Of a stretch of 64,000 bases of DNA, positions 46,340 through 46,729 are shown one piece after another; within the stretch, counting starts at the first letter, position 1; every line of letters begins with the position of its first letter. The stretch comes from Escherichia coli (GTDB lineage Bacteria > Pseudomonadota > Gammaproteobacteria > Enterobacterales > Enterobacteriaceae). The stretch lies in the NCBI RefSeq assembly GCF_013315695.1, contig NZ_CP054353.1; one strand, written 5' to 3'. The notes below the pieces were generated by a model. It had not been told where the DNA came from. It worked only from the letters and a program-made list of their open reading frames with translations, and searched no databases. Position numbers and translations under genes: made by a program.

Positions 46340-46367
46340 TTGCATGAAAACGCGAGCGGAGTATAGT
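46340..46367 (+). promoter_or_regulatory. sigma70 promoter of the tRNA-fMet cluster
   Basis: TTGCAT, 16-bp spacer, TATAGT, followed by GC-rich discriminator GCGCATCC typical of stringently controlled stable-RNA promoters; about 13 bp upstream of the first tRNA. Confidence 0.7.
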
Positions 46368-46380
46368 GCGCATCCACGGA

Positions 46381-46457
46381 CGCGGGGTGGAGCAGCCTGG
46401 TAGCTCGTCGGGCTCATAACCCGAAGGTCGTCGGTTCAAATCCGGCCCCCGCAACCA
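46381..46457 (+). tRNA. metZ: initiator tRNA-fMet (anticodon CAT)
   Basis: CGCGGGGTGGAGCAGCCTGGTAGCTCGTCGGGCTCATAACCCGAAGGTCGTCGGTTCAAATCCGGCCCCCGCAACCA; C1/A72 mismatch and three G-C pairs in the anticodon stem are initiator hallmarks. Confidence 0.97.
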
Positions 46458-46490
46458 ATTAAAATTTGATGAAGTAAAGCAGTACGGTGA

Positions 46491-46567
46491 CGCGGGGTGG
46501 AGCAGCCTGGTAGCTCGTCGGGCTCATAACCCGAAGGTCGTCGGTTCAAATCCGGCCCCCGCAACCA
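46491..46567 (+). tRNA. metW: initiator tRNA-fMet (anticodon CAT)
   Basis: Identical 77-nt copy, 33-bp spacer after the first. Confidence 0.97.
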
Positions 46568-46600
46568 ATCAAAATTTAATGAAGTAAAGTAGTACGGTGA

Positions 46601-46677
46601 CGCGGGGTGGAGCAGCCTGGTAGCTCGTCGGGCTCATAACCCGAAGGTCGTCGGTTCAAATCCGGCCCCCGCAACCA
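46601..46677 (+). tRNA. metV: initiator tRNA-fMet (anticodon CAT)
   Basis: Third identical 77-nt copy. Confidence 0.97.
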
Positions 46678-46694
46678 ACACTTATGATGCTGAT

Positions 46695-46729
46695 AAACCG
46701 CAATGTGTTTCACAGATTGCGGTTTTTTT
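46695..46729 (+). terminator. rho-independent terminator of the tRNA-fMet operon
   Basis: aaaccgcaat...attgcggttt hairpin followed by T-run. Confidence 0.8.

Follow-up and report, generated by a model that had tools for sequence, protein, structure and literature searches.

The three tandem tRNA-Met genes of an Escherichia coli chromosomal window are the known metZ-metW-metV initiator tRNA operon, an array of variable copy number

Three tRNA genes of one kind stand in tandem within a stretch of 64,000 nucleotides of an Escherichia coli genome (the whole stretch analysed here, referred to below as the window). An earlier note had described them as three initiator tRNA genes of the metZ-metW-metV cluster, with one promoter, one terminator and a copy number prone to change. 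This raises the question of which locus this is and what its genes encode, and of how far such an array varies among strains.

Across the 64 kb of the window, ARAGORN called three tRNA genes and no others, all tRNA-Met (cat) on the plus strand, and the tRNA prediction that had been proposed as a check therefore returned three CAT tRNAs. The genes, metZ (46381-46457), metW (46491-46567) and metV (46601-46677), were identified by ARAGORN, by Rfam and through the MG1655 annotation; each scored 61.4 bits against RF00005, for which the gathering score is 29, and all three are identical over all 77 nt. A 25-nt fragment of the tRNA 3' part occurs 3 times in the window, against 0.00 occurrences expected by chance. 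Tandem Repeats Finder reported a tandem array at 46379-46678 with a period of 110, 2.7 copies, 98% matches and no indels. The two spacers, both on the plus strand (46458-46490 and 46568-46600), are each 33 nt long and differ from one another at 3 positions. The description of these spacers as near-identical was thus borne out, and that of perfect 110-bp tandem units is correct as regards the period and the tRNAs, whereas the spacers depart from it. The range previously assigned to the array, 46340-46729, begins at the first base of the -35 hexamer and ends with the final T of the tail of the terminator. The third 110-nt unit shows a 79% overall match, made up of 79 bases (a 2-nt leader plus the tRNA) and approximately 8 of 31 trailer bases; the idea that the spacers arose out of the trailer that followed a single ancestral gene was considered and dropped, because the trailer match of the third unit is at chance level.

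The RefSeq annotation of MG1655 names the identical genes metZ (b2814), metW (b2815) and metV (b2816), describes them as 'tRNA-initiator Met(CAU)' and places them between mltA and amiC, in agreement with the earlier assignment to this cluster. In the window, the array also lies between mltA (45075-46172, minus strand, upstream) and amiC (52242-53495, minus strand, downstream, beyond 5.5 kb of extra DNA) and is transcribed away from mltA. The tRNA region is approximately 98.4% identical to K-12 up to 46678 and 100% identical over the tRNA blocks. The window and MG1655 share the same tRNA genes, the 110-bp period, the sequence at 46326-46380, mltA as the upstream neighbour and the orientation, whereas they differ by a few bases in spacer 2 and in everything past the CCA end. 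This locus is the ordinary, well-studied and already known metZWV initiator tRNA operon of E. coli, and no evidence contradicts this identification. Over a longer range, the window is 99.95% identical to isolate AF14 across 35.8 kb. Between tcdA and mltA (window approximately 45020-45039), K-12 carries approximately 142 bp more than the window, and this extra DNA is possibly a short extragenic element of the repetitive kind.

The earlier note had argued that the identity of the tandem genes makes their number liable to change and had proposed a comparison across strains. We counted copies in 5,426 complete E. coli genomes, using junction queries whose ends were too short to match a lone tRNA. 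At least two copies were present in 5,194 of the 5,426 genomes (one-junction query covered to at least 80%) and at least three in 5,000 of 5,426 (two-junction query covered to at least 80%), and the coverage of the two-junction query was as predicted, at 72% in two-copy genomes and 42-44% in one-copy genomes. For longer arrays, a 403-nt synthetic five-unit query was used only for ranking; its coverage is useless as a counter because non-overlapping pieces are joined, such that three-copy genomes reach 93% coverage. Among the top 40 genomes in this ranking, 39 have at least four copies, and three-copy arrays appear by approximately rank 92, which bounds the number of genomes with four or more copies between 39 and approximately 91 of 5,426. 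Overall, approximately 4,910-4,960 genomes (approximately 91%) carry three copies, approximately 194 (approximately 3.6%) carry two, approximately 232 (approximately 4.3%) carry one or none, and 39 to approximately 91 (approximately 1%) carry four or more, up to seven. The comparison across strains therefore revealed deviations in both directions, and the proposed liability to copy-number change is upheld by a range of one to seven copies, with approximately 9% of the 5,426 genomes not having three.

Complete E. coli genomes contain arrays of 1, 2, 3, 4, 5 and 7 copies, as individual cases illustrate. According to their annotation, SBF45 has one copy, M9682-C1 has two, and AR_0137 has five with spacers of 33/34/33/34, a pattern that is as expected for one exchange displaced by two units. 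XL10-Gold, a laboratory derivative of K-12, has four. The seven copies annotated in NRZ95651 consist of three copies, a truncated dehydrogenase fragment, IS1B and four further copies, and this array is an IS1-associated duplication. At least 25 records, most of them of clinical isolates and with a chromosome size of 4.75-5.1 Mb, contain a five-copy array; their scores are alike (97.8-98.0%), which points to a single expansion passed on in one lineage. In BL21(RP), a B-strain derivative, four match pieces are stacked on a 137-bp span (NZ_CP084683.1, 4491140-4491276) with one annotated tRNA-Met, suggesting a single-copy or rearranged locus.

Errors of assembly could account for some of the copy numbers other than three, because tandem repeats can be mis-assembled and our counts come from assemblies rather than reads. 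However, that the copy-number differences as a whole are artefacts of collapsed or expanded 110-bp repeats is improbable. First, long reads far exceed the 330 bp of an array, and many read pairs exceed it as well. Second, the recurrence of five copies in so many records, the inspected one of which has alternating spacer lengths, suggests inheritance within a lineage. Third, the seven-copy case has IS1 between its three-copy and four-copy blocks. Fourth, amplification of the corresponding genes has been documented experimentally in Salmonella, where, according to Nilsson 2006 as cited in PMC2859245, amplification of metZ-metW compensates for the loss of fmt. Real variation in gene number is therefore the reading that we retain, and because this amplification has been reported, the instability of such arrays and its selective use are already documented.

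The Salmonella metZ-metW locus resembles the array in the window in being a tandem initiator tRNA array in which, by the experiments of Nilsson 2006, a change in copy number raises the supply of initiator tRNA; it has two genes, compared with three in the window. Representatives of Salmonella arizonae and diarizonae have two copies with spacers of 28-29 nt. In species-representative genomes, we collected 99 loci outside E. coli, each chosen because it contains one tandem pair or more; most are from Enterobacterales, with others from Ferrimonas and Marinobacter. Three copies are present in 60 of these loci, two in 34, and four to six in a few. Spacers within the tandem pairs range from approximately 22 to 50 nt, with larger gaps in some arrays. 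Ferrimonas balearica and Marinobacter nauticus carry five to six near-identical initiator tRNA genes with spacings of 22-35 and 111-113 nt.

Downstream of metV, the window departs from K-12. Homology to K-12 ends at 46678, one base past the CCA of metV, and resumes at 52241, at the stop codon of amiC, such that the gap between metV and amiC measures 71 bp in K-12 versus 5,562 bp in the window. Since this homology ends before the hairpin, the terminator of the window is not that of K-12: the K-12 structure downstream of metV (ACACCC-UAAC-GGGUGU-U7, folded at -12.2 kcal/mol) is not present, and a different hairpin stands there. Folding predicted an intrinsic terminator on the plus strand, with a hairpin AAACCGCAAU...AUUGCGGUUU at 46695-46725 and a U7 tail at 46723-46729; the hairpin has a free energy of -18.3 kcal/mol (z = -4.66), and 0 of 200 shuffled sequences were as stable. 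A single terminator at the end of the array, as had been described, was thus found, though unlike the one in K-12. It is part of the variable flank and does not define the operon, as the type of terminator varies among strains: 1,547 of 5,426 genomes match a query that extends past the K-12 breakpoint. The earlier note had placed the beginning of an island within approximately 30 bp of the terminator. For gene content this is right, the stop codon of the first island gene lying at 46756, 27 bp past the T-run; for homology it is not, as the break with K-12 falls at 46678/46679, 17 bp before the hairpin.

The 5,562-bp segment absent from K-12 (46679-52240) is the context of the tRNA operon and not a part of it. 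Its GC content is 35-44%, versus 50-55% in the flanks, and its genes all lie on the minus strand: an intact phosphoglycerate-dehydrogenase-like gene of 315 aa (46756-47703), a KpsF/GutQ isomerase (47774-48370), MalY/PatB (48373-49548), a PTS EIIC (49548-51128) and a PRD-domain regulator (51160-51984). In AF14, the dehydrogenase-like gene has a 1-bp deletion (CCC to CC, at window 46821) and is annotated as a frameshifted pseudogene. Among the 5,426 genomes, the arrangement of the window, with the PTS cluster only, occurs in 596, a type VI secretion system (T6SS) together with the PTS cluster in approximately 950, and a K-12-like flank in approximately 3,880.

In strains that carry the known T6SS island at metV (PAI-CFT073-metV), such as p11A, the same five-gene cluster is found at the amiC end of the island. 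The window resembles this island, which is known from ExPEC, in having an insertion right after metV and the PTS, MalY, KpsF and dehydrogenase genes at the amiC end, but it lacks the T6SS part of approximately 42 kb and has the flanking repeat of p11A once only. In p11A, that part has at either end a copy of an imperfect direct repeat, which comprises the final 14 nt of metV and the trailer; a block of 41 nt is identical in the two copies. The corresponding stretch, metV's last 14 nt plus trailer and terminator, is present in the window at 46664-46736 on the plus strand and matches both ends of the T6SS part: the window follows the left end of p11A up to 46736 and its right end from 46664. Because the repeat is present only once, this stretch looks like an unoccupied attB-like site. 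Beyond the array, the window has no further copy of the 3' end of metV, and no tRNA-derived repeat was found where the 5.5-kb cluster adjoins amiC. The direct repeat that marks attL and attR, in which the 3' end of the tRNA recurs on the distal side of the insert, is thus absent here. No integrase is annotated in the window or in the T6SS island of p11A.

As low-GC foreign DNA begins one base after metV, one might suppose that the tRNA genes arrived together with the adjacent, horizontally acquired island and do not belong to the core chromosome. However, the array with its upstream flank is present in 5,425 of the 5,426 E. coli genomes, whether followed by a K-12-type, a PTS-only or a T6SS+PTS flank. 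Among these genomes, no lineage lacking both the island and the array between mltA and amiC was seen, and this tandem array recurs elsewhere in Enterobacterales. An origin of the array with the island is thus practically excluded, and we treat metZWV as a chromosomal locus with a variable downstream flank.

A CAT anticodon is insufficient to tell an initiator tRNA-Met from an elongator tRNA-Met or tRNA-Ile2. In all three genes, CAT occupies tRNA positions 34-36 (standard numbering with one extra base, 17a), and ARAGORN places the anticodon cat at position 35. Position 1:72 is C1xA72, with no Watson-Crick pair; it carries a non-canonical mark in the Rfam alignment, and base 1 is unpaired in the minimum-energy fold. 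The anticodon stem contains three consecutive G:C pairs (G29:C41, G30:C40 and G31:C39), the D stem carries A11:U24 (A11 and T24 in the DNA), a pair typical of initiator tRNAs, and A73, an encoded CCA and G46 are also present. Because C1xA72, A11:U24, the anticodon-stem G:C pairs, A73 and G46 are all found, the genes encode initiator tRNAs, as had been claimed for the three CAT genes. The label given by ARAGORN, tRNA-Met (cat), would equally suit elongator tRNA-Met or a tRNA-Ile2 with its CAU modified to lysidine, classes which that program cannot separate, but such an identity is ruled out by the initiator-specific C1xA72, G:C pairs and A11:U24 and by 100% identity with metZ, metW and metV of MG1655, annotated as initiator. 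The role of the G:C pairs of the initiator anticodon stem has been described, and G46 is the form of tRNA-fMet1 (PMC3017606). The other initiator tRNA gene, metY (tRNA-fMet2, upstream of nusA-infB), differs from the metZWV genes of K-12 only at position 46 (PMC3017606); it is a single-copy gene at another locus with A46 in K-12, whereas the genes of the window, having G46, are of the fMet1 type. Given their 100% identity to tRNA-fMet1 of K-12, their products are expected to be formylated by Fmt and to initiate translation in the P site.

Upstream of metZ, the promoter core and leader (46326-46380) are base-for-base those of MG1655. On the plus strand, the -35 hexamer TTGCAT (46340-46345) matches TTGACA at 3 of 6 positions and is followed after 16 nt by the -10 hexamer TATAGT (46362-46367); both are the same in MG1655, and the latter fits PMC3017606. 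The G+C-rich discriminator GCGCATCC (46368-46375) lies directly 3' of the -10 hexamer, and the spacing would place the transcription start at approximately 46374-46376. An A8 tract just 5' of the -35 hexamer (46330-46337), present in all 5 aligned strains, is a possible UP-element-like sequence. The region also agrees with the primers that Kapoor et al. used for knockout and PCR and with their description of the -10 (PMC3017606).

The previous description of a strong promoter with a GC-rich discriminator was correct for the discriminator. For the strength it found no backing in the hexamers, which match the consensus at 8 of 12 positions, and a generic promoter and terminator scan of the plus strand called neither the promoter nor the terminator of metZWV. 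As the -35 hexamer matches only 3 of 6 positions and the hairpin exceeds the scan's loop limit of 8, this silence is a limit of the scan and not evidence of absence, and since the scan calls neither element, their assignment rests on identity to K-12 and on folding. The activity of this promoter is known from experiments in the literature and cannot be read from the sequence. Single mutations in or adjoining the -10 box, among them the D4/D27 promoter-down mutations in the -10 region, sharply lower tRNA-fMet1, the level of initiator tRNA follows gene copy number, and mapping of the start site and down-regulation by ppGpp (the stringent response) are cited (PMC3017606). Promoter activity, stringent control and a dosage-proportional tRNA level are thus taken from that literature.

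Two further features of this region were observed. In the strain p11A, which carries the T6SS island, G is naturally replaced by A at the position equivalent to window 46358, 4 nt upstream of the -10 box; Kapoor et al. described a promoter-down G-to-A change 'just upstream' of the metZWV -10 (PMC3017606). The minus strand carries, at 46332-46305, a sequence resembling a promoter (TTTACC, 16 nt, TATGAT, with TG); it faces mltA and, by its match to the consensus, may be a divergent mltA promoter standing back-to-back with the metZWV -35.

Together, it is nearly certain that this array is the chromosomal metZ-metW-metV operon, with one promoter, one precursor and one terminator, and with an unstable copy number. 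The single sigma-70 promoter (TTGCAT, 16 nt, TATAGT) would drive transcription of one precursor, its G+C-rich discriminator would make it sensitive to ppGpp, and transcription would end at the one intrinsic terminator downstream of metV. Processing of such precursors proceeds by RNase P together with endo- and exonucleases; in metZWV, RNase P and RNase E would probably cut the precursor into three identical tRNAs, the CCA ends of which are already encoded. The array would supply most of the initiator tRNA of the cell, with an output proportional, on the basis of the literature, to gene number. The identity of the 77-nt genes and their 110-bp period would allow whole units to be gained or lost through unequal homologous recombination or replication slippage, which we infer to be the mechanism of copy-number change.

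For the annotation of this DNA, metZWV serves as an anchor, which places the window on the E. coli chromosome at approximately 63.5 min. It also gives the precise left boundary (46678/46679) of a variable region, occupied here by a 5.5-kb sugar/PTS cluster and in ExPEC strains by a T6SS island. As a textbook locus, it has little value as a discovery; what the survey adds is a quantification of the expected instability, with approximately 9% of the complete genomes deviating from three copies. It is doubtful, though conceivable, that this polymorphism of one to seven copies is non-neutral, with expanded arrays, for instance the five-copy form of the mostly clinical isolates, or collapsed ones selected to tune the supply of initiator tRNA. 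If this were true, a selected copy number could affect the fidelity of initiation or growth in the cold, or could compensate for costly resistance mutations, as with fmt in Salmonella.
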